Both the position numbers and the translations under genes were made by a program. From IMG/VR virus record IMGVR_UViG_3300045988_060114: a stretch of DNA of 64,000 bases; one strand, written 5' to 3'. The notes beneath the pieces were generated by a model, which saw nothing but the letters and a program-made list of their open reading frames with translations, ran no database searches and had not been told where the DNA came from. Below are positions 3,665 through 32,000 of the stretch, piece after piece. The first letter of the stretch is position 1, and every line of letters begins with the position of its first letter. The stretch comes from a virus.

Positions 3665-4423
3665 TCAGCAGTTTTCGGTATTGAAATCTTCGGGGTAGAG
3701 TTTTTCGATTGATTCATTGATGTCTGCTTTACAGAGATACTTTTCTAGAAGTGGCTGAGACATGAAATATTCAGGAGATACATCGTCTTCCAAGACGTCC
3801 TCAACCGTAGTCTCTAACTTGATAGGCGAAGGGAAGTGATACTCAGGGTTCGGTTCGTCTTCTGTGCGTAGGATGGAAATGACAAAGATGCGCTCACGAT
3901 TTTGAGGGATTCCGTAATCTTTGGCATTCAGAACCTTGTAGAAGGAGGTGTAACCGAAGTAGTCGAGGTCTTTCAGATATTGGAAGAAGTACTTTCTCAT
4001 TGACTTTGATAGAAGACCTTTCACGTTTTCGAGCATCACATATTTAGGATGCTTGGCTTCCAACATTCTCCTTTCTTGGAAAATAAGAGAAGAACGTGTG
4101 CCGCTACCTTCCTCTGCTCCCTTGCGAAGTCCTGCGTTTGAAAAGTCTTGGCAAGGAGAAGACCAACTGATGAAATCGAAGTCGGGAACCTCATTCCAAT
4201 CAAGAAGGGCGATGTTTCCGTAGTTTGGGATTTCTCTGCCATGAAGAAGTCTATAGGCTTGGATGGCGGAAGGTTCAATCTCGGAGTAGCCCACTACCTT
4301 GAAGTCGAACTCAGGATGCTTTTCTTTGAGGTATTTGAAGGCTAGGCTCTGGCTGCCATACCCAGCGAATGCTTCAAAGACTCTGAGGGGATGCTGCTTG
4401 TTGTACTTACTAATTTGTATCAT
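3665..4423 (-). CDS. C5-MTase N-terminal catalytic fragment (motifs I-VIII)
   Basis: ATG at 4423 (the track start at 4459 is GTG). Carries FEAFAGYGSQ, SSPCQDFSNAG, ENVKGL and QNRERIFVISI. Confidence 0.7.
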   Translation of the reverse strand: MIQISKYNKQHPLRVFEAFAGYGSQSLAFKYLKEKHPEFDFKVVGYSEIEPSAIQAYRLLHGREIPNYGNIALLDWNEVPDFDFISWSSPCQDFSNAGLRKGAEEGSGTRSSLIFQERRMLEAKHPKYVMLENVKGLLSKSMRKYFFQYLKDLDYFGYTSFYKVLNAKDYGIPQNRERIFVISILRTEDEPNPEYHFPSPIKLETTVEDVLEDDVSPEYFMSQPLLEKYLCKADINESIEKLYPEDFNTENC

Positions 4424-4446
4424 TGTGGTAAACGGTTTCGTAGATG

Positions 4447-5016
4447 TTACGGATTCCACTGGATGCCCAAATGTTCCATTGTTCCGTTGTCACGATATAT
4501 CTCCAATGGGATTCTACATGAACTTTGTGGGTCGTTCTTTAGGACTTCAATCATTCCGCATATTCGCTTGCGAAGTTTATTGTCCTGTGCTTCTTCTGTA
4601 AGATTCTGCAATTCGGCTTTTGTTCTAGCGATGAGCTGACTCATTTCAGAAGGCTTTTCATTTATGGCTGCTGGCGGTGGTGTTGCTCCGATAAGTTCGT
4701 CTTCCCATCCTCGCTGGTTAAGGAAGGTTTGGAAGTTCTTTCTGTACTGCTTGTCGGGTTGGGATATTACATAGAGAGGAATATACTCTATAGCTGCCTT
4801 GCGGTCTTTCTGGCTCATAGAGTTCCACTTCTTTTCGAGTTTGGCTTTGCAGCCAACCTTCTTTTCGTAAAGGTTCCATGCTCGTTCAAAGGTATATTCG
4901 TCTTTGACTTGCTTTGGTGGAGCGGTTACCTTGTAGCCATTCTCTTCTAGAAGCTGGATGGCTTCGTTTAGTTTGGCTATGAAATCCTTTCCGTTCATGA
5001 TAATTACATCATTCAT
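4447..5016 (-). CDS. hypothetical conserved phage protein
   Basis: 189 aa ATG ORF with a W/K-rich central segment (ERAWNLYEKKVGCKAKLEKKWNSMS). Confidence 0.55.
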   Translation of the reverse strand: MNDVIIMNGKDFIAKLNEAIQLLEENGYKVTAPPKQVKDEYTFERAWNLYEKKVGCKAKLEKKWNSMSQKDRKAAIEYIPLYVISQPDKQYRKNFQTFLNQRGWEDELIGATPPPAAINEKPSEMSQLIARTKAELQNLTEEAQDNKLRKRICGMIEVLKNDPQSSCRIPLEIYRDNGTMEHLGIQWNP

Positions 5017-9533: not shown

Positions 9534-9611
9534 TGGGGCGCAAGGTGGGACTCGAACCAACGACCTCGAAGGGGATGAACCTTCATACTCTACCAACTGA
9601 GTTACTTGCGC
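9534..9611 (-). tRNA. tRNA-like gene, anticodon CAU, atypical
   Basis: Hand-folded cloverleaf: acceptor GCGCAAG/CTTGCGC, D-arm ACTC-AGTTGGTA-GAGT, T-arm GTTGG-TTCGAGT-CCCAC and an encoded CCA. Oddities are a 6-bp anticodon stem (or a 9-nt loop), C at position 37 and a U-C mismatch in the T-stem. Confidence 0.6.
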
Positions 9612-11290: not shown

Positions 11291-11350
11291 ATCTTAATTT
11301 TTTGTTGTAATTTTGCTTTTAATATATAGCAACTTACTTGTTTACGGTTG

Positions 11351-11398
11351 CAAAGGTACTCTTTTCCGAGTAAACTACCAAACAATTTCTCGAAAAAG
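11351..11398 (-). promoter_or_regulatory. early leftward promoter box plus imperfect inverted repeat (putative operator)
   Basis: The reverse complement of 11351-11358 is TACCTTTG (TAnnTTTG). CTTTTCCGAG (11361-11370) and CTCGAAAAAG (11389-11398) form a 10-bp inverted repeat with one mismatch. Confidence 0.45.
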
Positions 11399-11445
11399 AT
11401 TAGTCCTTTAAGATTAATTAGTTAATGTTTATAAATGTAAATTGT

Positions 11446-11847
11446 ATGGAAACAACTATTTATCAGAGAGTTAAGCTAGTTTTAGAGGATAAATCTATTT
11501 CCGTTAACGCTCTCTCTAAACAGATTAATGTAGCGCAAGCTACCCTGAATCCTCAGTTAAGAGGTGATAGAACTTTAGCAGCCAATATCGTAGCGAAGAT
11601 ACTGGATGCCTTTCCTGATGTGTCTGCTGAGTGGTTGATGCGTGGTGTTGGTACTATGTATAGTAATCAAGATGCGGATGATTCATCTTATATGGTGGCT
11701 GAGACTCCTCATCGTGAAGAACCTAAGATAGAAGAGTCTCATCAGGATGATTCTGTCTGGAAGGCAAAGTACGAGGAGTTGGAGAAACGCTACGACCAGC
11801 TACTATCTATCTTAGGTGGTGGCATGAGAAAAGCAAATGTCGGTTAA
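11446..11847 (+). CDS. CI-like XRE-family repressor
   Basis: IYQRVKLVLEDKSISVNALSKQINVAQATLN...AEWLMRGVG is a Bacteroidota phage repressor-type HTH. It is divergent from the Cro-like gene, with an ATG at 11446. Confidence 0.6.
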   Translation: METTIYQRVKLVLEDKSISVNALSKQINVAQATLNPQLRGDRTLAANIVAKILDAFPDVSAEWLMRGVGTMYSNQDADDSSYMVAETPHREEPKIEESHQDDSVWKAKYEELEKRYDQLLSILGGGMRKANVG

Positions 11848-11852
11848 CATTA

Positions 11853-12281
11853 ATGTTTAATTATAAAAATGTGGTAGATATGAAACTGATTATAACAAAT
11901 TTATATACGTTGTTCATTTTAGCGGTGTGTGATGCGATAGTCCTCTTGTCTGTGAAGTGGGCTATTAACATTGATGTTATTTATATAGTGTTGTTGATGA
12001 TAGGAACATTACCATTTATGGTGGTATCTAACTTATTTGATAAGTCGATAACGTTCTTCCCATATTATTTCATCAGATTAAGACAGGTTGATGTTTATAG
12101 TTCCTTTTTCCTATATATGCTTGGCTTTGCTTTCGGAACGTTCTATTTATGGCATACGTTTTGGCAGCATGATGGTCATTGGATATTAGGATGTATCTTT
12201 GGTACAATACTGAACTGGATATTGGTGGCTATGAAAGGAAATGATTTGGTGTTGGTTCATAAAAGAATGGGGGTGATGTGA
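11853..12281 (+). CDS. polytopic membrane protein (about 4 TM)
   Basis: Hydrophobic segments throughout. First gene downstream of the repressor. Confidence 0.5.
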   Translation: MFNYKNVVDMKLIITNLYTLFILAVCDAIVLLSVKWAINIDVIYIVLLMIGTLPFMVVSNLFDKSITFFPYYFIRLRQVDVYSSFFLYMLGFAFGTFYLWHTFWQHDGHWILGCIFGTILNWILVAMKGNDLVLVHKRMGVM

Positions 12282-12724
12282 TGGAAGTATTTATAGGTAT
12301 AATGTTGCTTTTGGCTATTATTGCTGTAATATTTATCCAGAGAATAATAAGTGTGAATCGTGAGTTAAGCGATAAGAAAGCAAAGGAAATGATGGAAAGG
12401 CTGAGGAAAGATTGCTCTGAGCACCATTCAATATGTGTTACTATTGATGGGTGTAAAATTATGCTAAGAGAAGACTTCATAAAGAAGGAATGGAATAAGA
12501 CTGGAGAAGGAGGAATGCCTATCCGTGGTCAATATGAACCAGCAGCGCATTTTTTGAGACGTGTTGACGAATATCGCAAAATGAAGGCTGAGCAGAAAAG
12601 ACGTTATGATGAGGAGATGGCACGAAAGAAACAGAGTATCTTAGGTAGATGCGAAAAGGCTCCTTTATCAAAGTCCGAGTATGAAGCTGACGAAATATTA
12701 AAGAACTACAATGGAAAATTGTAA
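12281..12724 (+). CDS. N-terminally membrane-anchored protein sharing a motif with the giant virion protein
   Basis: Start overlaps the upstream stop (ATGTGATGG). Carries the TM segment VFIGIMLLLAIIAVIFI and contains FLRRVDEYRK (12551-12580). Confidence 0.5.
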   Translation: MEVFIGIMLLLAIIAVIFIQRIISVNRELSDKKAKEMMERLRKDCSEHHSICVTIDGCKIMLREDFIKKEWNKTGEGGMPIRGQYEPAAHFLRRVDEYRKMKAEQKRRYDEEMARKKQSILGRCEKAPLSKSEYEADEILKNYNGKL

Positions 12725-12762: not shown

Positions 12763-13206
12763 ATGAAAAGATTATTTTTATTATTGCTGACACTCTTTAT
12801 GATAATTGGAGTGCAGGCACAGAGACCGAGTGTTAAGGAACAAATGGAGATTAAGCAGAATTACATGAATTTCTGTAAGGACTTGAATCAACAGTTGCCA
12901 ATACAGGTGGATGATTACACAAGGTTCTATGCTGTAAGTTTCGTTAATTGGACTCTGACTGCGTATTATCAGCTTGATGTAGATTCTGATGATTTTTCAG
13001 AGAATGAACTGATAGAACTTCATGGCGAGTTGCGTTCTGCATTCAAGGAGTCTGCTAGAAGAATGTTCGCTAGTGGCAATTATGATTTGAAACGTGATGA
13101 ATGGAAATGGTTTATGAGGGGCACAGGAATGAAGTTTAGGGCAAATTATAAAGATGCTTACGACAGACCGATGCTTAATATTACTTTAGATTATTCTGAT
13201 TTCTAA
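12763..13206 (+). CDS. secreted protein with signal peptide
   Basis: N-terminal MKRLFLLLLTLFMIIGVQAQ looks like a signal peptide. Confidence 0.5.
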   Translation: MKRLFLLLLTLFMIIGVQAQRPSVKEQMEIKQNYMNFCKDLNQQLPIQVDDYTRFYAVSFVNWTLTAYYQLDVDSDDFSENELIELHGELRSAFKESARRMFASGNYDLKRDEWKWFMRGTGMKFRANYKDAYDRPMLNITLDYSDF

Positions 13207-13258: not shown

Positions 13259-13660
13259 ATGGCAGATGTAACTAACGAACAGAAGCTGTATGTGCTGCTG
13301 AAATATAAGAAAGAGCGAACAAAGAAGGAAGAGAAGATTCTTTCTATATTAAATGAGAAAGCAAATCTAGGCTCTTCTGATTTAGAGGAAGCGGACAAAG
13401 AATGCTGCAATCAAAAATGGCTGAGTCCAATTCACGTAGTAGAAGAATTGGGGTATACAACAAAGTACTCCCATAGAATAGAACTATCTGAGTCTGGTAA
13501 ATCTCAGATAGAAAAGTTCTGGAGAGAATCTAAGTATAACCCTGAAAATGTTTGGAAATCTAGAGTTGTCAAATGGTCTTCTGTTGTCACAGCTATAATC
13601 ACGTTAATATATTTCCTAGCGTGGTTATGCCAATTAGTACAAAAGCCAGTAGAACAATGA
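13259..13660 (+). CDS. tail-anchored membrane protein
   Basis: C-terminal TM segment VVTAIITLIYFLAWLCQLV. Confidence 0.45.
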   Translation: MADVTNEQKLYVLLKYKKERTKKEEKILSILNEKANLGSSDLEEADKECCNQKWLSPIHVVEELGYTTKYSHRIELSESGKSQIEKFWRESKYNPENVWKSRVVKWSSVVTAIITLIYFLAWLCQLVQKPVEQ

Positions 13661-13873: not shown

Positions 13874-15037
13874 CTAGTCCTTGTCGAAGAACTTATCAAT
13901 GAGTCCCATTGCATCATTCTTCTTCTTATCTATAATCTTGGCATAAATCTCGGTGGTGGCGATTCTTGTATGCCCCATCAACTTACTGGTGGTGTAGATG
14001 TCTGCACCCAGTGTAAGCATCATGGTTCCAAAGGTGTGCCTTGCAGTATGGAAGGTAATGTCCTTCTTGATACCAGCGTTCGCTGCCCAAACCTTGATAT
14101 GAGTGAGAACCGTCTGTTCGCATCCCGTACCATTGAAGATGAACTCGTTTCCGCCCTGCTCAGGCAACCATTCTATAGCCTTGCCTGACAGATTGTATGA
14201 AACCATCTTGTTGGTCTTCTTCTGTATAATAGATAGATGCCATGACTTAGTTCCATCCTCATTGGTTACTTCCCTGATGTCTGACCATTTCAGTCTCCTG
14301 ATGTCGGAGATACGCAAACCACAAAAGCAGGAGAACATGAATGCCTGCTTGATAACTGGAACCTTGCATTCTGTTTCAGCCAGTTTCTTCACCTCCTCAA
14401 TATCCAAGAAAACCCTGCTGGTTTCGGGTTTCTTCGGCTTCTCTCGCTTATCCACCTCGCTGAATGGATTCTTGTATATCATCCCACCTTTCACGGCTCT
14501 GCTGAGCATTTCATTGAGGTGATTGCAATACATAATCTTGGTGTAGCTGGAAAGCGGCTCTCCATTGCTCTTCTTGGTGTTGTTCAGGAACTCAATGAAT
14601 CCCACACAATACTTCTTGTCAATACTGGATAGCTTGATATTATCTCCCTTGTAGGCGATGAGTTGCTTTCGGGCGCATTCTATCTGCGCTGCAATTCTGC
14701 TTGGAGACTGCGATGTCTTCATCTTATAAGTCTTGAAGTTGTCTATCCAGTCCATGAGCTTCATCTTGCTCTTGACGGACATGATACCTGAAATGCTGTT
14801 CTTGATGTCCAGTACTCTCTGAGCCTTGATAACATTGGCGGTAGCCATTGTTTCTGCATTCTTTCTTCTTGCCTCTGCCTTACCTCTACCCACCTCTGGT
14901 ACGATGTAGAGTTTCAGAAACTCATAGGTTCTCTTGCCATCCTTGTAGATGTCTAGATAGACACTCTTGTTTCCGTTGGCAAGTTCCTTGAATCTGATAG
15001 TGACAGGTTCTTTTTCGATTGTTTTCTTCCTTCCCAT
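13874..15037 (-). CDS. int: tyrosine site-specific integrase
   Basis: GLRISDIRRLKW...HTARHTFGTMML...LMGHTRIATTEIYAKI gives the R..H-x-x-R..H..Y catalytic set. The N-terminal SAM-like domain is typical of Bacteroides integrases. ATG at 15037. Confidence 0.85.
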   Translation of the reverse strand: MGRKKTIEKEPVTIRFKELANGNKSVYLDIYKDGKRTYEFLKLYIVPEVGRGKAEARRKNAETMATANVIKAQRVLDIKNSISGIMSVKSKMKLMDWIDNFKTYKMKTSQSPSRIAAQIECARKQLIAYKGDNIKLSSIDKKYCVGFIEFLNNTKKSNGEPLSSYTKIMYCNHLNEMLSRAVKGGMIYKNPFSEVDKREKPKKPETSRVFLDIEEVKKLAETECKVPVIKQAFMFSCFCGLRISDIRRLKWSDIREVTNEDGTKSWHLSIIQKKTNKMVSYNLSGKAIEWLPEQGGNEFIFNGTGCEQTVLTHIKVWAANAGIKKDITFHTARHTFGTMMLTLGADIYTTSKLMGHTRIATTEIYAKIIDKKKNDAMGLIDKFFDKD

Positions 15038-15144
15038 AAGCCTTTCTTTTATAAATCTGCTGCAAAGATAAGCATTTTTTTTGTTACTCGCAAGTTTTGG
15101 GTAACAAAATAGTAACAAAACTAACACGTATCTGATGTATAGGT

Positions 15145-18185: not shown

Positions 18186-18854
18186 ATGTTAGGAGCGTTA
18201 ATTGGGGCAGGTCTTGGACTTGCAAGCAGTATCGCTGGTGGTGTAGCTAACCGCAAGGCGAGACGTAAGCAGGAGCAGATGATAGCCCAGCAACAGAAAG
18301 AAAATCAGGCATGGTATGATAGAAAGTATAATGAAGACCCTACCAAACGTGCCGATACCGTTCGATTGCTCACTCAAATGCAGGAGCAAATCAAGAACAG
18401 AAACAAGGCTGCGAAGGGTAGACAAGCGGTGATGGGTGGTACAGAAGACTCCACTACTGCTGTGAAGGAGGCGAACAACAAGACTCTTGCTGATACCACC
18501 TCACAGATTGTAGCTGCAAATGATGCCCGAAAGGATAACATCGAGCAGCAGTATATGAACAGAAAGAACCAGTTACAGAACCAGCAGATGGGTATTGAAG
18601 CTGAGAAGGCTGCTGATACTGCCAATGCGGTTGCTGGTGTGGCTGGTACTGCTGCCAATATCGCTGCAACTATTGATAGTGGTGTTGGAGCAAAGAAGGC
18701 TCCGAACATGAATGTGACTCAGGAGCAGTTGGATGGTATCGCCAAGAATCCAAATGATGTTCTTGGCTTGAAGGCTAAAACTACTAGGTTGCCATCGCAA
18801 GGTGAACTGAATAGCCTTGGAGTGAAATTGCAAGAACAGAAAGTTAAAGCATAG
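18186..18854 (+). CDS. Gly/Ala-rich pilot/ejection-like virion protein (putative)
   Basis: N-terminal GALIGAGLGLASSIAGG, a Q/N-rich coiled middle and a second Gly/Ala-rich stretch. First gene of the giant-protein operon. Confidence 0.45.
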   Translation: MLGALIGAGLGLASSIAGGVANRKARRKQEQMIAQQQKENQAWYDRKYNEDPTKRADTVRLLTQMQEQIKNRNKAAKGRQAVMGGTEDSTTAVKEANNKTLADTTSQIVAANDARKDNIEQQYMNRKNQLQNQQMGIEAEKAADTANAVAGVAGTAANIAATIDSGVGAKKAPNMNVTQEQLDGIAKNPNDVLGLKAKTTRLPSQGELNSLGVKLQEQKVKA

Positions 18855-18857
18855 CCT

Positions 18858-20027
18858 ATGAAAGCATCAGATATGTTACGACACAATAATGGCTTGAAGA
18901 CTACACAGAGTGTTCTCAACAAGCAGCAGAGTGGTGTGGATGCGGCACAGAAGGTGGCACAGACTCAGGCTCCAGTCTTCACCCAGCAGCAACTTGATGC
19001 GGCTGGCAAGAAGGTTGACCAGATGAATGCTGCCACTCCTCAGAATGAAACACCTACGATGAAGGCGGCTAGAGAGAAGACTATCGCTACTCAACAAGCC
19101 ATCGCCAATGGTGTAGATGTGAATCAGGGTGCGCCAAGTGATGAGGAGGATAAACCATCTGTACCTATCGTGAAGAAGGAGGAACCGAAACCTCAGCCCA
19201 AGCAGCTATCTTACGCTGATATGTATAAGATGCTGAATCCTGAGCATCAGGAGACGGCTGAGCAGAGGGCTAACAGAGAGAAGAAAGAACGTACCAAGGC
19301 TCGTATCGCTGCCTTGGGTGATGGTCTCCGTGCGCTATCCAATATCTACTTCGCTACCAAAGGTGCAAAGGTGGTACACAATCCTGAGTCGGATATGACT
19401 AAGGCGGTGAATAAACGCAAGGCATTTATGGATGAGCAGAGGGAAAAGAATCGGGCATCATGGCTGGCTGGGTATCAGAGGGCACTTGCTCTTGATGAGG
19501 AAGCGAGAAAGAATAACCTGACTCTAGCTGAGCAGATGAGGTATCACGATATGCAGAACGACCTCAACAAGGTGAAGGCTGAACAAGGGCAGCAGAGAAT
19601 TGACCAAGGAAACAGAAGACTTGACTTGTCGAAAATGAAGTATGATACTGATGCTGATTACAAAAAGTCTATATTGGCTATCAAGAAGGCTCTGGCTGAT
19701 GGGCAAATCTCTCATTGGCAAGCACAGGAGGCTATCCAGCGTATCAATGCTGAGACTGGTCGAACCCGTGCCAACAAGTCGGGTAGTAGCAGTTCAAGAA
19801 AGGGTTCTTACTCTGGAGAGGTTGATGAGTATATGGATTTGATGGAGAAAGACCCTGAGGGTATGGCTGAGGCTGCAAAGGAAGTAAAGAAAATGGGCTA
19901 CTCTCCTAAGACGGCAGCAGGAAAGAAGGCTCAGAAGATTGCTTATCAGCGTAAGCATGGTAAGACTAAACAGAACCATACATCATCCAACAATGGTGGA
20001 AAGAAGAAGACTGGTGTAAACTGGTAA
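18858..20027 (+). CDS. Lys/Gln-rich coiled-coil protein
   Basis: 389 aa, low complexity, lying between the pilot-like gene and the giant ORF. Confidence 0.5.
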   Translation: MKASDMLRHNNGLKTTQSVLNKQQSGVDAAQKVAQTQAPVFTQQQLDAAGKKVDQMNAATPQNETPTMKAAREKTIATQQAIANGVDVNQGAPSDEEDKPSVPIVKKEEPKPQPKQLSYADMYKMLNPEHQETAEQRANREKKERTKARIAALGDGLRALSNIYFATKGAKVVHNPESDMTKAVNKRKAFMDEQREKNRASWLAGYQRALALDEEARKNNLTLAEQMRYHDMQNDLNKVKAEQGQQRIDQGNRRLDLSKMKYDTDADYKKSILAIKKALADGQISHWQAQEAIQRINAETGRTRANKSGSSSSRKGSYSGEVDEYMDLMEKDPEGMAEAAKEVKKMGYSPKTAAGKKAQKIAYQRKHGKTKQNHTSSNNGGKKKTGVNW

Positions 20028-20057: not shown

Positions 20058-23000
20058 ATGGCAGAAAGACCATTATACACTTTATACAAGAATCTGAAAG
20101 CACAGAACTATGATGTGCCTGATGATTACAATAAGTTTGAGAGCGCCCTGACCAGAGAAGGAAAGGGCGGTGCAGATAACAGACACGCTATCTATGAGAA
20201 CTTGAAGGCTCAGAACTTTGATGTTCCTGATACTTATGAGCGTTTCTATTCTGCACTTTTTGAACCTCGTAGTAAGACTTCATCTAGAGCGAAGGGCGGT
20301 AGTGTTCCTTTGAGTGCTGCTGACCGTGCTCGTTTCAATGCTAGAACTGCGGAAATCTTGTCTAGTGCTAATAATGCGGTAAGACAAGCAAAGCGAAACA
20401 TTCAGACCAAACTGGGGCAAGCAAAGAAGTTTGATGGTGGCAGGGTTACTCAACGTCTAAAGAATCCTTTGCAGAATCAGAATGTACAGAAGAATGAGTT
20501 CAACTATAATGCCACAACTGGCAAGACTGGAACCTATACAACATCTGATGGAGTGGAGTTCGATAACGAGTATGATGCTACCCAGTATCAGAATAAGTTG
20601 GACGAGCAGGGGCAGCAGTATATCAATGCTGTAAATGCTGGTGAGATACCGTCTGCTTTAGATGTGCGTGACCAGAATGGCAACTACGACTTGCAGGAGA
20701 ATATTGGTAAGAATGGAACCTATCTCACTGAGGAGGGTGCTCAAAAGCAGTTTGATAAGAAACTGGCTGATGCCTATGCTCGCAAGAAGGAGATAGAAGC
20801 TGCTATAGCGGAAGACAATCGTCAGCATGGCAATCCTCTGCTCTCTTATGGTGCTAGTATTGGTTCAAGTAACGGAAGAAATGCTGAGCAGAGTGACTAT
20901 AGAAATAAGTTGGCAACCTCTCTATCTCTTGTTACTCAGCAGATTGGTGCGCTTGAAGCGGTGAAACAATACCCTACAAGTAGCTGGGGTGAGGATGCCT
21001 TGAAGGCTCTTGACAATACTGCCTTTACTGCCAAGACTTGGGATTTCGGTCTGACTGATTTTGCTACCATGGGGCAGATGGAACGTATCAAGACAAAGAT
21101 GGATAACAACATTCCTCTCTCTGGTTCTGATAAGATGCTCTTGAAGAGTAAACTGGGTGCGGATGCTGCTGCGGCTCTCGAAGATGAGAAGATGGGTAAT
21201 ATCTATCGCTGGACGAAGATTGCAGGGCAGAGTCTCCCATTTATGGCTGACTTCTTCCTGACTGGTGGCTATGGTGGTATTACCAAGGGCATCAGTCGTG
21301 GAGCCTTGAAGATTGCTGCTAAGTCTGGAATGGGCAAGGTGAGTGCTGCAATTTTGAAGAACACTGGTATCGTGGCTGGCGATGTAATCGGCTCGTATGC
21401 GATGGCTGGAACTGAACAGGCATTGAAGACTGGTGCAGACATCATGCAGCGACATCTAGGTAATCTGTATCAGGATGAGAAGGGCGATTATAAGTTCGGT
21501 ACATTTGACGAAAACGGAAACCTCCTGCATGAAGGTGGTGAGTCTATGGGTACTGCTCTCTATAAGGGGCTGACCTCTGCCATGGTGGAGAACTACACAG
21601 AGAAGTTGTTTGGTCACAACTATGGTATCAAGAAGGGTGCTGTCAACTTCATGGAGAAACATGGTATGAATGCTTCTGCTGAGTTCTTCAAGAATATCGG
21701 CAAGAGTGGTTGGTACACCAATTCTAAGAAGTGGATGGAGAAGTTTGGCATCAATGGTTTCGCTGAGGAAGTGATGGAGGAGGAAATTGGTATTCCTCTT
21801 CATGCACTGCTGGATGGTGATAGTAAGGTGAGCGACCTTCTTGATGCTAGACAACAACTTGACATTATTGGTGGTATGGCTATCTCTGTTGGTTCTATGT
21901 ATGCGATGGGTGCTGGCTCCCGACCAGTGAAGGGTGTGTACAATCGTGCTCAGTACTACCGATTCAGACACAAGTTGAACGTGGCTGATAGTGATGCACA
22001 GAACCTTATTGGCGATAACTGGGCAGACATCAAGGATAAGATTGACAATGCAACCAACGAGCAGATGGGTAGTGTACTAGCTGGCATTCTCCGTCAGAGA
22101 GATACAATGACCAAGGAACAGATTAATGCTGCTGTTAACTATGGTGTGAACCTGATGAAGATGCGTGGCTACAATATTGCCAAGACTTCTGAAATGAATG
22201 CAAGGGAGATTACCAATGAGCCTACAACTCCTGAGGAACAGCATCAAACGGATATTGATAACGCTTACTCTGAGGGGCATGATGCTGATGATGCAGACAA
22301 ACATGATATTCAGATTCAGCAGGAAGACCAGATGAAGACTCTTGCAGCAGCATTGGGTATCTCTGAGCAGCAGCTATCTGTTATGAGTGATGAGGAGTTG
22401 GAATCCTTAACTGGAAAGGATGATAAACTTGACCAAGCTATCTATGACTACCAGTTGTCTTCTGCTCGCTACCAAGGTGTGGTTGATGATGCACAAGACA
22501 AGGTTGACCTTGCTGCTCATCAGGCAGAACAACGTGTTGATATGTACACAGACCAGAGCCGTGGCTCAGTCCGTAACGCTACCATTAAGGCATCTGGAGG
22601 ACTGGAAGACTATGGTGTCTATATTATCAGTGGCAATATCGCTACTCATGATGATGGTACTATTGATGTAAGCAATAGTGATGATATGATTCTCTATTAT
22701 GACCCGACAACGAATAGTGTAGAACACGCTGATGCATTGATGTTCGCTGAACTGGGTGAGGAACTGCCTGCTGATGATGTGAAGGCTCAGGCGGTAGCTG
22801 ATGCAAAAGAGGTTGCTATCAAAGAAGTGGCTGGCATCATTGACGGAACAGTTGATGTTGGCTCCCAGTTCTTGGTGACTGATGCTGACGGAACGGAACA
22901 TACTTATGAGGTGCTTGCTGATTATGGTGATGGTACTGCTGCTATTTCTATTGATGGTAATGTGGTAGAGAATCCATATTCGCTTGCCGATTTGCAACAG

Positions 23001-26000
23001 ATGAAAGACTTGGAAGACAAGAAGAGATTGGAAACTGCTAAGGCTCAGCGTGAGCAGATAGAGAAGGAACGTGCTGAGCAGCAGAATCAGGAGACAGAAC
23101 AGACTCAACCTTCATTTGATTTCAATCAGATTCTTAATGACAATGGAAATGTTGTCATTGTTGATGTGCTGGATAAGGATGGCAATACTAAATATCCTGA
23201 CTCTAGATTGTTCCTTATTCGTGATACTGGTGCCAAGGCTAAGGTAGTTGAGTTGAAGAGTGATGGCACTATTGTTCCTCATGCTGTGAGCAAGAAGAAT
23301 GTGAGCATAATTACTTCAATGTCGCTTGATGAGTACAAGCAGGCTATGGCTGAATCCTCAATGATAGAGGATAATAGTGGAGAGAATAGAGGTGAGATAG
23401 AGGTGGAGACTCCGACAATAGAGGGCGAGACTGCTGCTCCTGCTGAGGAGACTGCTGCTCCTGAATCTGCTGAGACTCCTGCAACTGAACAGACTCCTGC
23501 TGCTCCTTCCATTACTCTTGAAGATGGAACCATCGTGCCTATGCTGGAGGATGGCAATCCTGACTTCACGAAGCTGACTGCCGCACAGACTGCTGAGTTG
23601 TATGACTCCCAGTTTGGTGAGGATGCAGATAGTATCGTATCTGGATATGTGTCTGATGCAAAGAAGGCACTCGACAAGGCTAGCAACATGACCGTGAAGG
23701 GTAAGACTTTCGTGGAACAGAAGGCTGCAAAGGATGCAAAGGAGAAGGCTATTGCTGATGCTCAGGCGGCTTATGACTCTGCTATCGCTATCCGTGATGC
23801 TTACAATGAGCGACAACTTGCCAAGGTGGAAGATACTGCTGAGGGTAGAAAGGAACTCATTGAGAAGGCAAGAAGAAAGTTTGCTCGCTTGAAGAGTGCA
23901 GTGAAGAATGATGCTGAGGCTGTAGCACAACTATATAAGGAGACTGTAGGCAGCTTGCTACATCGTCTGTATGATGGCACTGGCATTGACGTGACAGATA
24001 CGATTCCGCTTACTGCTGAGGAGTATGTGGCTAGTAATCTCGGTGCTCACTCTCTCAACTATGAGGGTACTGAGACAAGCAAAGGTGTTAAGCAAGAGAC
24101 TGGATTGAGTAGAGAAGACTTTGCCAAGACCCAGTTGCTCGCTGCTGATGGCAAGGGTACTACTATTGACAACCTCGTACATAGCTTGTGGGAGAATCGT
24201 CCATCTAACCTTGATTCACTCGACACTCAGAATATTCGCAATGCCTTGCTCAGCATAATCACTAGCGGTTTCAAGGCATCGGAAGCAAGAAATTACATTG
24301 AAAATCTCCGTATCGCTCAGGCTGAGAATATCCTTGAAGAGCAGAAGAAGGCGGCTGATAACGCTGCATTCGCTGAGGAGAAGACTGGGGAAGAGAACTC
24401 TGATGAGGAGAATGATGAGGAGAATGAGAAGATAAATGAGCAGACAAATGAGAATATAAATGCTCCTGAGGTTCCTGAGGATGCAACGGATGATACTCCT
24501 TTAGGCGCACAGCGTGATGAATCAGACCTTCCTTTCTCTGCTAAGGAGAATGGCAAGCAGCAGACAACTGCCGAGCGTGCTGCTGATGTAGAGAAGAATA
24601 AGGTGGATGATATGAAGGTCGTTGACAATATCGTGGGTGAAAAGACTCGAAAGGCTTTCGAGAGACTGGCTAAGATGATGGGTGCTGCCATTCAGTGGCA
24701 GTACTCTGACAAGTTGGGTAACGGCTGGATTCAGGAGACCAAGGATGCTGATGGCAACGTTCATCGTACCATCTTCATTACTCTTGACTCTTCTATCACG
24801 GAAGGTGCTCAGTTTATCTTCGGTCATGAAATGACTCACCAAATCAAGAATCTGAACCCTGCTGCATACAATGAGTTGACTCAGCTTGTGCTTGATACCT
24901 ATGGCTCTGATGCCTTCGACAAGGCGGTAGGTGAGACCATGCAAAGATATTCTGATGCTGGATTCTCTGGACGTGCTAGAGATTACTATGCTGAGGAGGT
25001 TGTTGCTGATGCGGTAGGTGAAATGATTCGTGACCTCAACTTGGCTCATACTCTCGCTATGAAGATGTCTCATCCTCTACTCGCTGCTATCCATGAGATA
25101 TTGCAGAAGATTAAGTTGGCATTCTTTGGCACTGAGTATAGCGATGTGACCAAGAACATCATCCGCTCCATTGAACAAGCCTACGTGAAGACTGCCAATG
25201 GGGAGGTGACAAACTCCGAGACTGGTGAAGATGTTTCCTTCTCTCTCCGTCAAAAGCCTGAACCTAAGAAGAAGGGCATCGGCTACAAGGTGTTCGTATT
25301 GAAGGATGGCAAACTCTATCCACCTATGGTAGCGAACCCTAATGGTGCTGCTACTCCAGTTGGTGTGTGGCTCGATGCTGATGCGGCTCCTATTGCAGGA
25401 GAAAGCAAGACTGGAAGACCTCAGGTTAAGCAGGGCGGCAAGGGAACACAAGGCGGTAGCGGTAAGTTAGCCTATAGACCAGGCTGGCATCTTGGTGTAG
25501 TGCCTTATGCTATCCAGTTTAACCGCAAGGATGCTGAGGGCAACAAGACTCTCTTCCCTAAGAACTTTGTCTTCGCTGAGGTGGAGTATGCTGCTGACGT
25601 TGATTATCAGGAGGAAGCTCGCCAAGAGGGTATCAATCCATCGGGCAAGTATCAGCATTCACTCGCTGGCTTGAAACATCTGCCTACTGATGGTTTCTAT
25701 ATGTATCGTACAAACCCGAACCCTGAGACTGACCCTTGGGTGATTACTGGTGCGATGAAGGTGAACCGTATCTTGACCAGAGCAGAGCAAGCGGAACTTG
25801 TGAAGAATGCTGGTCGTGAACCTCAGCAGATTCAGGAGGGCGATATTGTTACTGATGATGTTGTGAACAGCATCAATCAGGAGATAGCTGATGCTCCTAA
25901 GTTCTCGTTAAAGGTATATCATGGTAGCGGTGCTGACTTTACAGAGTTTGACTTCGACCACATGGGTGAGGGTGCTGGCTCCCAAGTATTCGGTTGGGGT

Positions 26001-29000
26001 GGCTACGTTACTTCATCGGAAGAGATAGGAAAAAGCTATGCTAATCTTTCAAGAGATTATGGCAGCAGAAACATATATAAGGGCGATATTCCGTTGACCA
26101 AGTTGGAAAAGGCTGCTTTGAGTTCATTCATTGAGAACAACAAGAATCATGAAGGGACATTCAAGGAAGGTGTTGCTGGTTCTATCGAGCGACAAAAGGC
26201 ATTGATTGCTAAGCATCCGAACAATCCTCTTTCTAATAGTATCAAGAAGAGAATTGAAGTATTGGAGGGTGCTATGCCTAAACTGGATAGTATCTCTTGG
26301 GATGATTTCGTTCCAAGTGGAAAGAACCTCTATGAGGTAGATATTCCTGAGGATAATGGCAGTAACTATCTGGAATGGGAGAAGAAACCATCTGATGAGG
26401 TTGCAACAAAGATAATTGAAGGTCTTTATGGCTTGGATGCTAAGACCCTTGATGATATGGCATCAAAGGATATTGTGTTCAGAACTCTGTTGTATGATTA
26501 CATCAAGAATGCAGACAAGGAGCAGATGATTCCACTCCTTGTGAAGACTCATGCTCTAACTAGGGAAACTACCTATGACAATGGAAATGTTGAGGATGAT
26601 ATACGATTTGTGTACAATCGTTTATCTAGATGGATGGGCAGTCAAAAGGCTGCAAGCCAGTTCCTATCTTCTCTTGGTTTTACTGGCATCAAGTACCCTG
26701 CTGGAACAATCATGGGCGGTGTTGAAGGAGACGAAATCAACTATGTTATCTTCAAACCTGAGGATATGAAGATTACAGAACATACCAAGTTCTCCATCAA
26801 GACCTATCATGGCTCCCAAGCATCATTTGACAAGTTCGACCACTCCTTTATGGGTAGCGGTGAAGGTGCTCAGGCTTACGGCTGGGGTACTTATGTGAGC
26901 GAAGTGGAAGGTATCGCCAAGGCTTATGCCAAGGCAAATGCAAAAAAGAATGCGCCTTCAAGACTGATGTATCAAGGTAAGCCTATGACGTATAAAACTC
27001 CATCAATTATCTATCAAGTTGCCCTTGATATGGATAAGTTTAATATTTCCGCAAAAGAGGCTATATCAAAGATGATAGATGCTGATGAGAAGAAACTTGC
27101 ATCCGTTGGCGACACCCCATTTGCGAAGATGAAAGCCAAACAAGTTCAAGATGAGTTGAAAGTTTTGAAAGATTTGAATCCTTCTGACTTCAAGATTAAT
27201 GAGGACTATGATACTGTCGCACAGGATTTGATAGATACAAAGTCTGGTCTTGATTTATTGGAGGATGAGTTGAAAGATGCAAAATCCTATGTAGATTTGT
27301 ACCAATCAAGACTTGATGAGGCTAAGGAAGAACTTTCAAAGGCAAAGGAAAGTGGCACTGGTTTAGGTGTTGATATGTATGAATCTGATGTTGAGTATTA
27401 TAGCGAACAGGTTAAAAGATATAAGCAGAGTATAAAAACTAAGGAAAGTGACATCAAAGATGTAAAAACTAAGGTTGACGCTTTGCAGAAGAAGTTGGAT
27501 TCCATGGAGAAACCACGCAACCTCTACTCTGTTGATATTCCTGATGATACTGGTCGCAACTACATCGGCTGGGATGAGCCTTTAGGTGCTGCTAAGATTA
27601 TGCGTCTGCCAAAGGTATTCAAGGCTGATGGCTGGGAGTACAAGAAGGTTGGTATGTATGATACTTACAAGATTGATGGTAACGAACATGAGGTTTGGCT
27701 TGAACCAACTTTGACTACTGGCAAGGAACTTTATAGAGATTTGACGAATGCCCTAGGTAGCGACAAGGCTGCAAGCGAATTTCTCTCCAAGGCTGGCTTT
27801 GTCGGTGTGAAGGTTATCGCTCAGCGTAATACTGGCGGCAACAAGGAAGGCAAGATGAACTATGTTATCTTTGATGAGAACAATGCTCAGATTACCAGTC
27901 ATACCAAGTTCTCGTTGAAGAAAGATGGCTTGACTCCTGAGATAGCAAATACTCCTGTAAATATTGTTGATGCTGATGAGGAACATGGCTTTAAGAACTA
28001 TGCTGAGGCAAGAGAATGGGCTAAGAAGAATATTGTTAGAACTTACAATGATGAAGAAACTGGTGGCAAGGGTGAGATTAATATCAGTAATACTGCTGTT
28101 GGTAAGTATTTGTCTGAAAAGGCAGTTAAGAAGAGTGCAAACAAAGATGTACACATGAGCGTTTTGAAGGTCTTGCCTTCTATACTTCGTGAGAGTGTAG
28201 ATGCTATTCAGCATGTTGACCGTAACAAGGTAGGAAATGAACGTAGTGAGGATTTTGGTGTCAATCCTGATGTTATGATACATCGTTGTTATGGTGCGGT
28301 GAATATAGGCGATAAGGTCTATGGTGTAAAGATTACTTTGAAAGAGAATGTAAGAACACACGAAAAAACAAAGCTATATAGCTATGAAGCAACAAAAATA
28401 GAGCTGCTGGACGGTCAAAGTGGAGACGTAGCTATGACCTCTCCCCGCAATTCCAACAACTCTATTACGGTTGCAAAGATAATAAAAGGTTTTGAAACTA
28501 CCAAGAAAAATGGCGAAAAGTTTTCATTGAAGGATGAAAAAACTCTTGCAGGAGTGCATAACATTACTGAGGAGAAACTGAGAAAGGCTTTGAAGCTGGG
28601 TGGATTTGCCAATCCTTCTTTGGCTGTGATTGATACCAACAAGACTGCTCACGACAACTTTGGAGAGATTTCCTTCATCGCTCCTTCTGCCCTTTTGGAT
28701 AAGCGTACTGGCAATACTGGCGGTACTTGGATAACTGATGCCTACACTCAACGTTATCCTTCCGTAGAGCGAGAAATGAGTGAAAAAGGGTATCGGAAGT
28801 TTGAAGACTGGGTTGATAGCCTTGATTACCCAAGTGTAGCTAAGGCTGAGATTGAGAGACAGGCAAAGGATGCCCTGAGCGACAATAATGCTCCTGCTTG
28901 GGAGTTGATGTACTTGAAGGAAAAGGGTATTGATATTAAGGAGTATGATTCTAGAATTGATTATCGCTGGAAAGAGATTATCAGTGACCATCCTACTGCT

Positions 29001-32000
29001 GAGGATATTCTGAATAGTATGAAGACTGACCCTGAACTGAATAAAAAGGTTACAAGTCTGGCTAAGCATGCCATCATCCATCCTACTTGGGAAAAGGTTT
29101 CTTTGGAGGTAAGAAGAAAGATGTATAAGGAGACTGGCGTTAAGGCTAGCCCTATCAATCCACAAGTAAGAAAACAGACTAAGGAAATCTTTGAGCGTGA
29201 CTATGCGCCAACCTTGCTTAACAAGGACGGCAGTCCAAGAAAAAAAGATGTGAAGAAGGTTGTTGGGGATATTGTGAAGGAGCACAACGATACCAAGAAG
29301 TATAACTTCTATCTGTCTAAGGTGAAGGCTAGTAATTACGTCAACAAGAATGGTCTTTATGATGATTACATCAGATGGCAGGAGAACAAACTGGATGAGT
29401 TCGGAACGAAGAACCGTATCTTCCGTGGCTATACTAAGGATGGTTCCCGAAAGTATGTGCCTGAGACTCTTGAAAATGTTTCAAAGGCTATGAGGGAAGA
29501 AGCAGATGGGCAGACCAATGGAAGTGAATATACCTCGTTTGGTAGCTTTATCGCAAAGTTGGCTAGTCGTGTTGATTCTACAGACGAAATGCGTGCCAAC
29601 AAGGATAAGTTGTCTTCTAATAAGGATAAGGAAGAGTTTTACGAGAAATGGAATGGGGTTTATTATGACCTTGCCAAGTTCTTGTATAATGATGTGTTTT
29701 ATGGCGAGCAGAGACTTCACGATATTGTATTGCAGTCTGACCCTAAGAAGTATGCCAAGAAAGAATATGGCATTACCCTTACTCCTACCTTTATGAAGAA
29801 ACTGGATGCCTTGAAGAATGCAGTACAGACAGAGTTGAAGAGTGCGTACTTTGAGACTAAGTACAACAGACCTCTACGCCTTAATGAGTTTGCTGCTGCT
29901 GTGGTTCCTGATAACTTGGGCGAAGATGTGCGCAAGGGTATAGAGAATGCTGGCTTACCAATGTATGACTACGACCCGAATAAGGAAGGTGACCGCAGTC
30001 GTGCCTTCAATGAAGCTATAAATAGCAGCGACAATATCCGATTCTCTCTTGCTGGCGAGCGTGGTGCGGCTGCTGCTGACAAGGCAGAGGAGCGTACTGC
30101 TCGTATGGATAATCTCTCTGTGGCTCGCAAGATGGAAGAGGAGAAGAAGGATGCCAAGGCAATCAAGATGGCTACTGGTTGGGAGCGTGGTGCTGATGGC
30201 AAGTGGAGATACGAAATGCCTGATGCCAAGATAAAGGACACGATGGACGTAGGCGGTGGGCACATCGTTAAGCGTTACGAGGATGATATGCTCTGGAATG
30301 GTGGTAAACTATCTAATGTGATTGATGCACCTGAATTATTTAAGGCTTATCCCCAGTTGAAAGATGTGCGTATTGATACGGATGCCATTATGAACGATAT
30401 GCCTTCAAATGGTGAATATAATTCAAAGACCAACACCATTACCATTCATGCTGATGAGTTGAAATATATGAATGGCATATTGAATCACGAGATTCAGCAC
30501 GTTATTCAGGATATTGAAGGCTTTGCCAAGGGCGGTAGTCCTAGATTGGTTAGAGGTGAGGTCAAGAAGAGGTTTGATGAGGTCACCAAACAGATTAAGC
30601 AGCTACGTGCAGAAGGTAAGGAAGATGAAGCAAAGACTCTGATTGAGAAGAACAGAGGTCTTTATAATGCTTATCAGAAGAATGATGATTTCAATAGTTA
30701 CAAGTCTCTTGCTGGCGAGGTGGAAGCTCGTAACGTATCTGCCCGATTGAACATGACTCCTGAGGAGAGAAGAAAGACTCTCGCTGAATCTACTGAGGAC
30801 GTGGCTCGTAAAGACCAGATTTTCTTGGGCGTGGGCGATGTGTCCTTCTCTCTACGTGATATGGCTGACGGAAAGGAGAGTGGGGCGGCTGATATGGCTG
30901 AGGATTTGAAGAGTCTGAACACTCCTGATGAGGTGGATGATGCTATCAAGACTGCCATTGATGATATGCCGAGCGGTTGGCAGATGGCTAACAAGAAGAT
31001 GATTCATATTGCTCAGGCTCTGGGCGAGAACCGCAAGGCAGAGATTTCTGGCGAGGAACCTAAGTTCTCCCTGAAGGCTGGCACTCTCATTAAGGCTGGA
31101 ACCTACTTTAGTGGTGGCGGTCTTGTTGAGGAAGGCTTGAAGGGTATCATCGACCCAGTGGTGGCAGTGGAGTATGACGAGAAGATAAGCGGTGTATATC
31201 GCAACAACTTCGGGCAGCACATTGTTACTGCTGATGTTCGTGATGTAGACCCTAAGGAGTTGGTGAAGCAGATAGATGGTGAGGTGGAGTACTTCCATGC
31301 CAGCCCAGTCTGCAAGAACTACTCTCAGGCAAAGAGTAACCACGCAGAGGTGGAACTTGACAAGGAGACTGCTGCTAGTACTGCCGAGTTTATCAATGCC
31401 GTTAAGCCAAAGGTGGTGACTATTGAGAACGTGAAGGGGTATAAGGATTCGGAAGCGATGAAGACTATTACCGATGCTCTGGATGCCAACGGCTATACTT
31501 GGGATGCAGATGTGTATAACGCTGCTGACTATGGCGGCTACACAAACCGAGAGAGATTGATTGTCCGTGCGGTTCGTGATGGCAAACTTCCTGCCAAGCC
31601 AAAGAAGATGGCACGCAAGAGTGGATGGTATGAAGCTGTGGCTGATATTATCCCGACCCTGACCGAGAAGAAGAATGGCGTGGCTCCTTGGATGGATATT
31701 CGCTTGAAGGCTGATGGCATTGACTGGAGAAACATTGACAAGCCATTATATGTGATGGGTAGTGCCTATGCTGACGGAAAGATTCCTCATGCCTTCGCTG
31801 ACGAACTGCTGCCAACACTCCGAACCAAGAGCGGTGATGTAATTGTGATGCCTGATGGTAAGGTATATCGTGCCATGGGCAGAGTGCTCGCTAGAGTATC
31901 AGGAGTGAGCGATGATTACAAGATGCCATTCTCCGAGAATCTGAGCCATACCATCATCGGCAACGGAATACCTACCCAGTTGACCGAGCATGTTATTGCT

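Follow-up and report, generated by a model that had tools for sequence, protein, structure and literature searches.

A temperate gut phage of Segatella (Prevotella) is represented by the 64,000 nt of IMG/VR record IMGVR_UViG_3300045988_060114 analyzed here (the window), in which two proteins of very different size carry the same short element. One is a small membrane-anchored protein encoded in the operon of the phage repressor (open reading frame (ORF) 12281-12724, referred to as the small protein), and the other is a very large polyvalent protein encoded among the virion genes (ORF 20058-36353, referred to as the giant). The original prediction, made from a pair of similar 10-residue motifs, was that the small protein copies a segment of the giant and excludes superinfecting phages; the positions it gave for the small ORF and for both 10-mers were all correct. 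The finding described below is a well-supported relationship between sequences, together with a plausible mechanism that might account for it.

The repressor operon and the small protein

The small gene belongs to a string of genes on one strand that is led by a CI-like repressor gene (11425-11847, plus strand), which matched PHROG transcriptional repressor families (E 1e-7) and whose Pfam matches to HTH_26 and HTH_3 fell short of the curated cut-offs. Beginning 5 nt past the repressor gene is that of a 142-residue multi-pass membrane protein (11853-12281, plus strand, from the ORF list and translation), for which there was no family match in Pfam, PHROG or PADLOC and no copy of the shared element according to a hidden Markov model (HMM) built from relatives of the small protein only. 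The ATG of the small gene (12281-12724, plus strand) overlaps the stop codon of this ORF, which makes it the second gene after the repressor, as had been described. The third cassette gene (12763-13206, plus strand) encodes a 147-residue protein with a signal-peptide-like N-terminus and the last (13259-13660, plus strand) a 133-residue protein with a hydrophobic C-terminal segment, as judged from their translations; Pfam and PADLOC searches gave no family match for the former and no significant family for the latter. Gaps between the genes of the string are -1 to 52 nt, and no terminator-like site was found between 11000 and 14000. The term lysogeny cassette, used in the original prediction, fits this repressor-led, same-strand and tightly packed layout, from which we infer that the small protein is expressed in lysogens.

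The divergent intergenic region before the repressor gene contains a Bacteroidetes-type -7 promoter box, TAATTTTG (11308-11315, plus strand), and a reciprocal -7 box on the minus strand (11351-11358), and a second -7-like box, TATCTTTG (12194-12201, plus strand), lies about 80 nt before the small gene. All three are matches to the TAnnTTTG consensus only, and a sigma-70 promoter scan is uninformative for Bacteroidota. In the whole window there were 68 such boxes against 49 ± 7 expected, a number that was reached in 1 of 100 shuffles and that is consistent with a Bacteroidota host. To the right, a tyrosine integrase gene (13874-15127, minus strand; Pfam Phage_integrase, Arm-DNA-bind_5 and Phage_int_SAM_5) is convergent with the cassette. 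To the left of the repressor, on the opposite strand, are a small gene in the Cro position, a Rha/KilAC antirepressor gene, an HTH_17 excisionase-like gene and a tRNA-Met gene (9534-9611, minus strand), the last of which is inside the phage genome, between the early or replication genes and the excisionase-like gene.

The small protein has 147 residues and consists, according to the ORF list and hydropathy, of an N-terminal transmembrane (TM) helix and a soluble part, charged and about 120 residues long. Its single strongly hydrophobic segment spans residues 3-24, where the Kyte-Doolittle mean over 19 residues reached 2.94, with values of 0.62 or less elsewhere, so that the N-terminal TM anchor that had been proposed is predicted by hydropathy as well. 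No lysine or arginine precedes the TM segment and six are found in the 20 residues after it, a distribution that favors an N-out, C-in orientation under the positive-inside rule; the soluble part is therefore most likely in the cytoplasm, with the helix putatively in the inner membrane.

Relatives of the small protein numbered 251 and were found in Segatella copri genomes and in Caudoviricetes metagenome-assembled genomes, the 120 that were listed being at least 66% identical. Nearly all of the relatives contain F[LVM][KR]R[VI]DEYRK, and in most it has the form FLKRVDEYRK, which is the version in the giant of the window. Sequence entropy in the family was lowest (0.22 bits) at residues 88-103, the motif segment, and highest (0.8-0.9) in the TM and juxtamembrane part; E86, R94 and Y98 are invariant. 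Some relatives have exchanged the N-terminal part, with the joint just before the motif (P0139). No relative was found by tblastn among the phage records of INPHARED. The low-confidence AlphaFold2 (AF2) model of the small protein places, in order, a short helix (DFIKKEW), a hairpin, and a long helix at residues 88-126 that starts with the motif, an arrangement also seen in the leader of the giant described below.

The giant polyvalent protein and its virion context

The giant gene (20058-36353, plus strand) encodes 5431 residues, in which the Pfam domains LPD3, PBECR5, ART-PolyVal (present twice), LPD23, DNA_methylase and LPD38 were above cut-off and LPD14 was under its cut-off. Such a mixture of unrelated activities and LPD domains characterizes the polyvalent proteins, and the giant, as judged by its domains, is a member of this class. 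Its gene stands among virion and packaging genes, with TerL, portal and tail fiber genes in the window, and a portal or major capsid protein gene adjoins the giant gene in relatives. About 1.2 kb upstream of its start, with one ORF between, is a gene for an internal virion protein of the T7 gp14 family (18186-18854, plus strand; Pfam T7_gp14, E 2e-6, 28.3 bits against a cut-off of 27). The intervening ORF is a conserved partner gene of 389 codons (18858-20027, plus strand), recognized by synteny, whose product had no family match in PHROG, Pfam or PADLOC. The order of a gp14-like gene (220-245 residues), a gene of 388-437 residues and the giant gene is kept in distant relatives, in which a P22-type portal or SU10-type capsid gene is found near the giant gene and some of the giants contain MuF_C. 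This conserved order suggests a T7-like ejectosome in which the C-terminal module of the giant would take the role of the large subunit.

Polyvalent proteins have been predicted to be packaged and injected with the phage DNA (Iyer et al. 2017, PMC5512222), and a 2811-residue polyvalent protein with LPD38 and MuF-C, gp47 of phage phi24B, was found by proteomics to be abundant in virions and was proposed to be an ejection protein (2026 preprint). By analogy with gp47, and given the polyvalent domains and the T7_gp14 neighbor, the giant is plausibly packaged in the virion and ejected, and the context thus supports its earlier designation as a giant ejected protein.

A junction motif, [FY]S[LI][RK], usually in the form xKFSL[KR], occurs nine times in the giant (residues 1728, 1949, 2245, 2618, 2822, 3597, 3670, 3991 and 4236), compared with 0.35 ± 0.6 times in shuffled sequences. 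The motif marks boundaries between modules, and in related phages the last junction, ...GNT[RK]FSLR, is the precise point at which four or more different upstream modules have been attached in frame. In polyvalent proteins the motif could serve for processing or, alternatively, as a joint for recombination. This phage has two C5 cytosine DNA methylases, one encoded by a stand-alone early gene (3665-4459, minus strand) and the other as a module of the giant (residues 3684-3980).

Everything after the last junction forms a conserved C-terminal module of 1195 residues (residues 4237-5431; 32766-36350, plus strand), delimited by comparison of IMG/VR loci and containing LPD38 at 35073-35708. Among 151 IMG/VR loci, the best 80 showed 97-100% identity over the first 182 residues of the module, with upstream modules that vary, and tblastn detected relatives of the module in Bacteroides, Ralstonia, Vibrio and Stx phages. 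LPD38 was the only Pfam match in the module, which had no sequence match in the PDB, and Foldseek found nothing when queried with a low-confidence model of residues 4237-4648.

The module begins with a leader (residues 4237-4296; 32766-32945, plus strand) that is made up of a helix, a loop, a second helix and the end ALWKTAP. In 20 diverse giants this leader is likewise conserved behind the final junction. The consensus of the leader across giants is W[KL]+.N.LP.DA..P..P.....[GN]E[ST]...[FY]..R[VL]..Y.....ALW.TAP. An AF2 model from an alignment of eight sequences gave block means of the predicted local distance difference test score (pLDDT) of 77-89 for model residues 11-60 and 84-89 for 11-50, with helices at model residues 4-17 (giant residues 4240-4253) and 38-55 (giant residues 4274-4291), followed by a long low-confidence stretch and then the next helical domain. 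The low-confidence stretch may, in terms of the model, be a flexible linker or tether; a confidently modeled mini-domain followed by such a stretch is what would be expected for a docking unit.

An element shared by the small protein and the giant

The shared element comprises residues 75-103 of the small protein, GEGGMPIRGQYEPAAHFLRRVDEYRKMKA (12503-12589, plus strand), defined by hhalign columns and an HMM, and residues 4261-4289 of the giant, QRPTIPQRNAGESAVDFLKRVDEYRKQMA (32838-32924, plus strand), defined by hhalign, by HMMs in both directions and by blastp of the small protein and of the 325-residue and 175-residue cassette proteins described below. Within it are the two 10-mers, FLRRVDEYRK in the small protein (residues 91-100; 12551-12580) and FLKRVDEYRK in the giant (residues 4277-4286; 32886-32915). 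The latter starts 41 residues past the last FSLR (residue 4236), in agreement with the earlier estimate of about 40.

In a blastp comparison of the small protein with the giant, the top high-scoring segment pair was at the element, with 14 of 25 residues identical (E 2e-4 for the pair). When the HMM of the small protein's relatives was used to search all six-frame ORFs of the window, the sole non-self match was to residues 4269-4299 of the giant (E 3.8e-5); conversely, the small ORF was the top non-self match of an HMM built from three giant sequences only (E 2.3e-4). Searches in both directions found exactly two copies of the element in the window. Alignment by hhalign of the profile of small proteins with that of 20 giant-type leaders gave a probability of 95.4% and E 1.9e-8 over 29 columns. 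The similarity extends over about 30 residues, P.R..(G)E.A..F..RV.EYRK..A, so the pairwise and profile alignments that had been suggested as a check showed a likeness of 29-31 columns, longer than the 10-mer and found in relatives as well. These comparisons indicate that the likeness of the element in the two proteins is real and not a product of chance.

The part of the leader to which the small protein corresponds is the end of the loop and the second helix. A looser similarity upstream, [DQ]F...W.K, had also been proposed; it maps to the first helix in both AF2 models, but it was not significant by sequence.

At the DNA level, 22 of 30 nucleotides are identical in the stretches encoding the 10-mers. 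The match at 14 of the last 15 nucleotides was correctly counted in the original prediction, but it is at the level of chance, as blastn of the small gene against the giant gene gave several equally good short matches (E 1.4). Moreover, five of the nine identical residues of the 10-mer are encoded by different codons. The chance-level DNA match and the differing codons indicate that the likeness has been preserved between the protein sequences and does not stem from a recent DNA copy; recent copying or gene conversion was ruled out on the same two grounds.

The third residue of the motif (12557-12559 in the small gene, 32892-32894 in the giant gene) is polymorphic, lysine or arginine, in both genes. 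It was arginine in 69 and lysine in 9 of 79 giant loci and mostly lysine in small proteins. Three physical pairs were available, too few for interpretation, and all were mismatched: arginine in the small protein and lysine in the giant of the window, both of them minority forms, and lysine in the small protein with arginine in the giant on two other contigs.

Recurrence in the cassettes of related phages

The region downstream of the repressor was surveyed in 100 related viral contigs, in all of which the cassette is led by a diverged repressor homolog. The cassette is a mosaic with many alternative genes, and the element was found in at least four architectures of cassette protein. The first is the single-TM type of 147-160 residues, to which the small protein belongs. 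The second, of 325 residues, has the same anchor as the first, a globular domain and the C-terminus RNEGESAWKYMMRVKPYKDKILAL. In the third, of 301-303 residues, a Cys-rich N-terminus and TM segments precede the same C-terminus as in the 325-residue type, and the fourth, of 171-175 residues, is encoded directly after the repressor, has four TM segments and ends in KTPERPMQDFGESREDYMKRVNEYRDKMKE. Forty-one of the 100 cassettes encoded at least one carrier of the element, and some encoded two. Even where the repressor was only 34% identical to that of the window, the cassette contained a 233-residue multi-TM protein ending in ...GESDEAYMKRVNEYVK.

Other carriers matched the giant at the same site as the small protein did. 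This site was the best blastp match of the 325-residue carrier (E 0.013 for the pair), with partly different identities (RNxGESA), and of the 175-residue carrier (E 1.1e-4 against the whole window). Over a core of 30 residues the cassette families shared 15-17, 14 and 10 identities with the giant and 6-10 among themselves; the small protein shared 15-17 with the giant, 9-10 with the 175-residue type and 6 with the 325-residue type. The sequence of the giant is, by these identities, central, each cassette family being nearer to it than to the other families. The remaining cassette proteins showed no resemblance to any other part of the phage proteome.

Small carriers with one or two copies of the element were also found in other lineages (P0152, P0167, P0168, P0174 and P0182). 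A metagenomic protein of 272 residues (P0141) joins the four-TM carrier of 175 residues to the small single-TM carrier, so that the element is present twice; whether genuinely fused or produced by an assembly or frameshift artifact, either origin is possible.

Two further modules were noted in the cassettes. The 325-residue protein (L020:10001-10975) and a 441-residue carrier (L192:3907-5229) have in common, beside the element, a globular domain, …FG[RK][FY]G[FY].[VM][ST]NPI.I…, for which no Pfam or PADLOC family was above noise. A second portable C-terminal module in the cassette slot, ...SVYICTGE[ST]STKYH[SC]DPDCRGLSRCSGEIEEVSEEEAEDMGRTPCKICY, is Cys-rich and zinc-ribbon-like and was found on at least five different N-terminal parts resembling membrane proteins or lipoproteins (L118:3928-4443, L137:3928-4506, L153:3928-4521, L165:3938-4642 and L119:3928-4323).

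Distribution of the element and its pairing with the giant

An exhaustive HMMER search of 1.84 billion representative proteins with the profile of the element gave 48 matches, most of which were giants, with the element about 1190 residues from the C-terminus, or small and mostly membrane-anchored proteins with the element in the tail. About 20 giants of 1500-5900 residues contained the leader element; in complete giants its distance to the C-terminus is about 1190-1350 residues, and most have it immediately behind a junction motif. Word-indexed protein searches with the leader segment or the motif alignment gave almost no giants. The element had no sequence relatives in the PDB.

A few matches fell outside these two groups. 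Four metagenomic proteins, otherwise unrelated (P0162, P0163, P0170 and P0184; L199 and L201), have 2-5 tandem copies of a looser repeat, GESDxD[FY]AxR, and one of them, P0162, is encoded just upstream of a terminase-like gene. There was also an isolated match to a plant Gag-like protein (P0181, E 4e-4). A comparison of the profile with the major homology region of retroviral capsids gave no significant relationship (best match 1bm4, E 0.4).

Of 25 contigs that combine the repressor cassette with a giant module that is almost identical, 8 had a carrier. The original prediction proposed a test of whether the pairing is conserved in related prophages: the element does recur in the cassettes, as described above, but its pairing with the giant is facultative. 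A carrier in only 8 of 25 contigs marks the trait as accessory, as expected for a variable defense or moron slot.

More distant phages gave some indication of a link between the two proteins. In the cultured Bacteroides temperate phages BS-TP4 and BKO1-TP3 the giants have the C-terminal module, with an identity of about 32%, and neither a leader in these giants nor a carrier after the repressor was found; this joint absence, in two genomes, weakly supports a link. The element copies P0168 copy a and P0152 copy a were closest to the P0158-type giant (FNGRLAEYN compared with FAGRLAKYN) and those of the window type were closest to window-type giants, which hints that the variants of the element in cassettes track those of the giants.

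Possible function of the small protein

Superinfection exclusion by mimicry is the best-supported, though still tentative, reading of the small protein's function. Under this reading the small protein would be an accessory ("moron") protein that the prophage of a temperate Segatella phage expresses, tethered to the inner membrane by its single N-terminal helix and with a soluble part built around a copy of the leader's second helix and of the loop that precedes it. As the internal proteins of a related phage are ejected, this membrane-bound copy would interfere, either as a decoy that occupies the normal docking partner of the leader or, in a dominant-negative manner, by pairing with the incoming giant itself, and by either route the ejected protein and the genome would fail to cross the inner membrane. 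The presence of a rare element in the leader, its repeated placement in the tails of proteins, mostly membrane-anchored, behind the repressor, and its conservation while the anchors vary would all be explained by interference of this kind. Extended to the temperate phages of the Bacteroidales, the same idea would make interchangeable membrane-tethered copies of the leader in the repressor operon a class of decoy or dominant-negative exclusion factors, with copy variants tracking giant variants in an arms race; as judged from the sequences compared here, this wider claim is possible but doubtful.

Several observations weigh against exclusion by mimicry. The small protein matched no family in Pfam, PHROG or PADLOC, including no known Sie or defense family, and its AF2 model was of low confidence (pLDDT 64), as was that of the leader region as a whole. 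Two parts of the leader in the giant, the invariant W-K-x-N-x-LP and ALWKTAP, are not found in the small protein. The 441-residue carrier has no obvious membrane anchor, and for the multi-pass carriers an ambiguous topology means that the element may sit in different compartments among the carriers. No carrier was seen in 17 of the 25 contigs with a cassette and an almost identical giant module, some of these cassettes being cut by contig ends. Essentially a single lineage of giants (97-100% identical) is present in IMG/VR, along with a few contigs of two other lineages; the contigs with divergent giants do not extend to the cassette and the divergent small carriers are on contigs of 1-4 kb, a sample that allows no comparison of co-variation. 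Finally, the looser GESDxD[FY]AxR repeats in unrelated proteins suggest that the pattern may in part be that of a generic strand-turn-helix.

The main rival reading, somewhat less probable, is that the element is a portable strand-turn-helix mini-domain that has been spread by recombination and has no functional tie to the giant. It would then have a structural role in the giant, as a spacer where modules meet, and would form a membrane-proximal stalk or oligomerization helix in the cassette proteins, which would do other jobs in lysogenic conversion. This would fit the extent of the likeness, just about 29 columns from which the most invariant parts of the leader are missing, the looser repeats in unrelated and apparently non-Bacteroidota proteins, the weak resemblance to the retroviral major homology region, the facultative pairing with the giant, and the highly mosaic cassette, in which modules move freely. 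However, the element is rare, with 48 representative clusters in 1.84 billion proteins, and within these phages the giant and the cassette proteins alone contain it. As the most conserved part of the small protein it is also no neutral spacer, and the cassette families are each nearer to the giant than to one another.

The cassette proteins might instead be abortive-infection sensors, in which the element binds a phage factor whose normal ligand is the leader of the giant (for example the gp14-like protein, the 389-residue partner, a protease or a chaperone) and the membrane part, once an incoming phage engages it, damages the cell. The element is joined to varied membrane domains and to the globular domain common to the 325-residue and 441-residue types, which gives the proteins the look of a sensor plus effector, and the cassette is in the usual place of prophage defense genes. 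This is nevertheless unlikely, as the small protein, with its single TM helix, lacks a recognizable effector, no PADLOC family was above noise for any carrier, and induction of the resident prophage would itself trigger the system.

Less likely again is a service to the resident phage, whereby the cassette proteins would hold or neutralize a leaky and toxic polyvalent protein in lysogens, or guide it at induction. The giant does have potentially toxic modules (ART, the PBECR nuclease and the methylase), and the shared element could mediate direct pairing, but most relatives with an almost identical giant module have no carrier, so that it is not essential for handling the giant, and immunity proteins normally bind the toxic domain and not a leader. 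Accidental similarity of a charged helical 10-mer, given a large proteome, could be argued from the chance-level DNA match and from a pairwise blastp value that weakens once corrected for all protein pairs of the window. It is very improbable and was effectively ruled out by the window-wide and reciprocal profiles, by hhalign (95%), by the independent matches of three cassette families to the same site of the giant, and by a pattern that persists across 100 cassettes and 20 diverse giants.

If the proposed function is confirmed, the small protein would represent superinfection exclusion by a new principle, self-derived mimicry. Exclusion by mimicry would be simple and evolvable, requiring a tethered copy of a part of an ejection protein that must dock at entry. 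Should the copies act in this way and their variants in fact track those of the giants, a fragment of a virion delivery protein would serve as prophage immunity, a bacterial counterpart of Fv1-like immunity. The leader and C-terminal module of polyvalent proteins belong to a large, widespread and almost uncharacterized class of virion cargo, and the giants of Stx-converting phages share the C-terminal module (the module was compared, and not the leader); what the leader does would become testable if the mimicry is true. The same applies to the crossing of the inner membrane by phage genomes in the Bacteroidales, dominant gut bacteria for which very little is known about this step. In addition, the pattern P.R..GE[SP]A..[FY]..R[VI]..Y[RK] provides a handle with which candidate exclusion genes could be sought in gut prophages and the phages that a lysogen resists might be predicted. 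Even if the function proves to be another, the element is a new portable link between accessory proteins of the repressor operon and the largest protein of the virion.

Comparison with known systems

In the literature searched no paper was found that links polyvalent proteins to superinfection exclusion or that describes mimicry of an ejection protein by a prophage protein. Nor did the papers and passages that were searched describe the leader element, its location behind the final FSL[KR] junction, or the copies of it in membrane proteins of repressor operons. The giant itself resembles known polyvalent proteins, including phi24B gp47, in that it mixes unrelated enzymatic domains with LPD domains, LPD38 among them, and is encoded among virion genes.

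A parallel in concept is the virus-derived host immunity of animals. Fv1 and enJS56A1, both endogenous and derived from Gag, block retroviruses as these come in or assemble. The likeness is one of concept only, in that a copy or piece of a virion protein, produced by an integrated virus, acts against relatives that come in; the biology is entirely different, and the resemblance of the element to a retroviral sequence was not significant (E 0.4).

The presumed target can be compared with the ejectosome of T7, which is composed of gp14, gp15 and gp16. The internal core proteins of T7 form a conduit across the envelope, a role that the size of the C-terminal module and its hydrophobic segment would fit. 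As in T7, a gene of the gp14 family is found beside the gene for a large internal protein, and the module of 1195 residues is about the size of gp16. It differs in having no detectable relation in sequence or fold to gp15, gp16 or any solved structure, and in being joined here to effector domains that make up some 4200 residues.

Among exclusion systems, the inner-membrane proteins T4 Imm and HK97 gp15 block genome entry and are functionally similar to SieA of phage P22. The small protein is comparable to SieA in that both are small membrane proteins from the lysogeny region of a temperate phage, the function of the small protein being predicted, and in that the genetic target of SieA is the phage's own ejection proteins. 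Mutations that escape SieA were located in the C-terminal regions of gp16 and gp20 (PMC10883804). The small protein is unlike SieA in having no sequence relation to Sie proteins (no match in Pfam, PHROG or PADLOC). SieA is also not reported in that paper to resemble its target, whereas the candidate described here copies part of the protein that is presumed to be its target.

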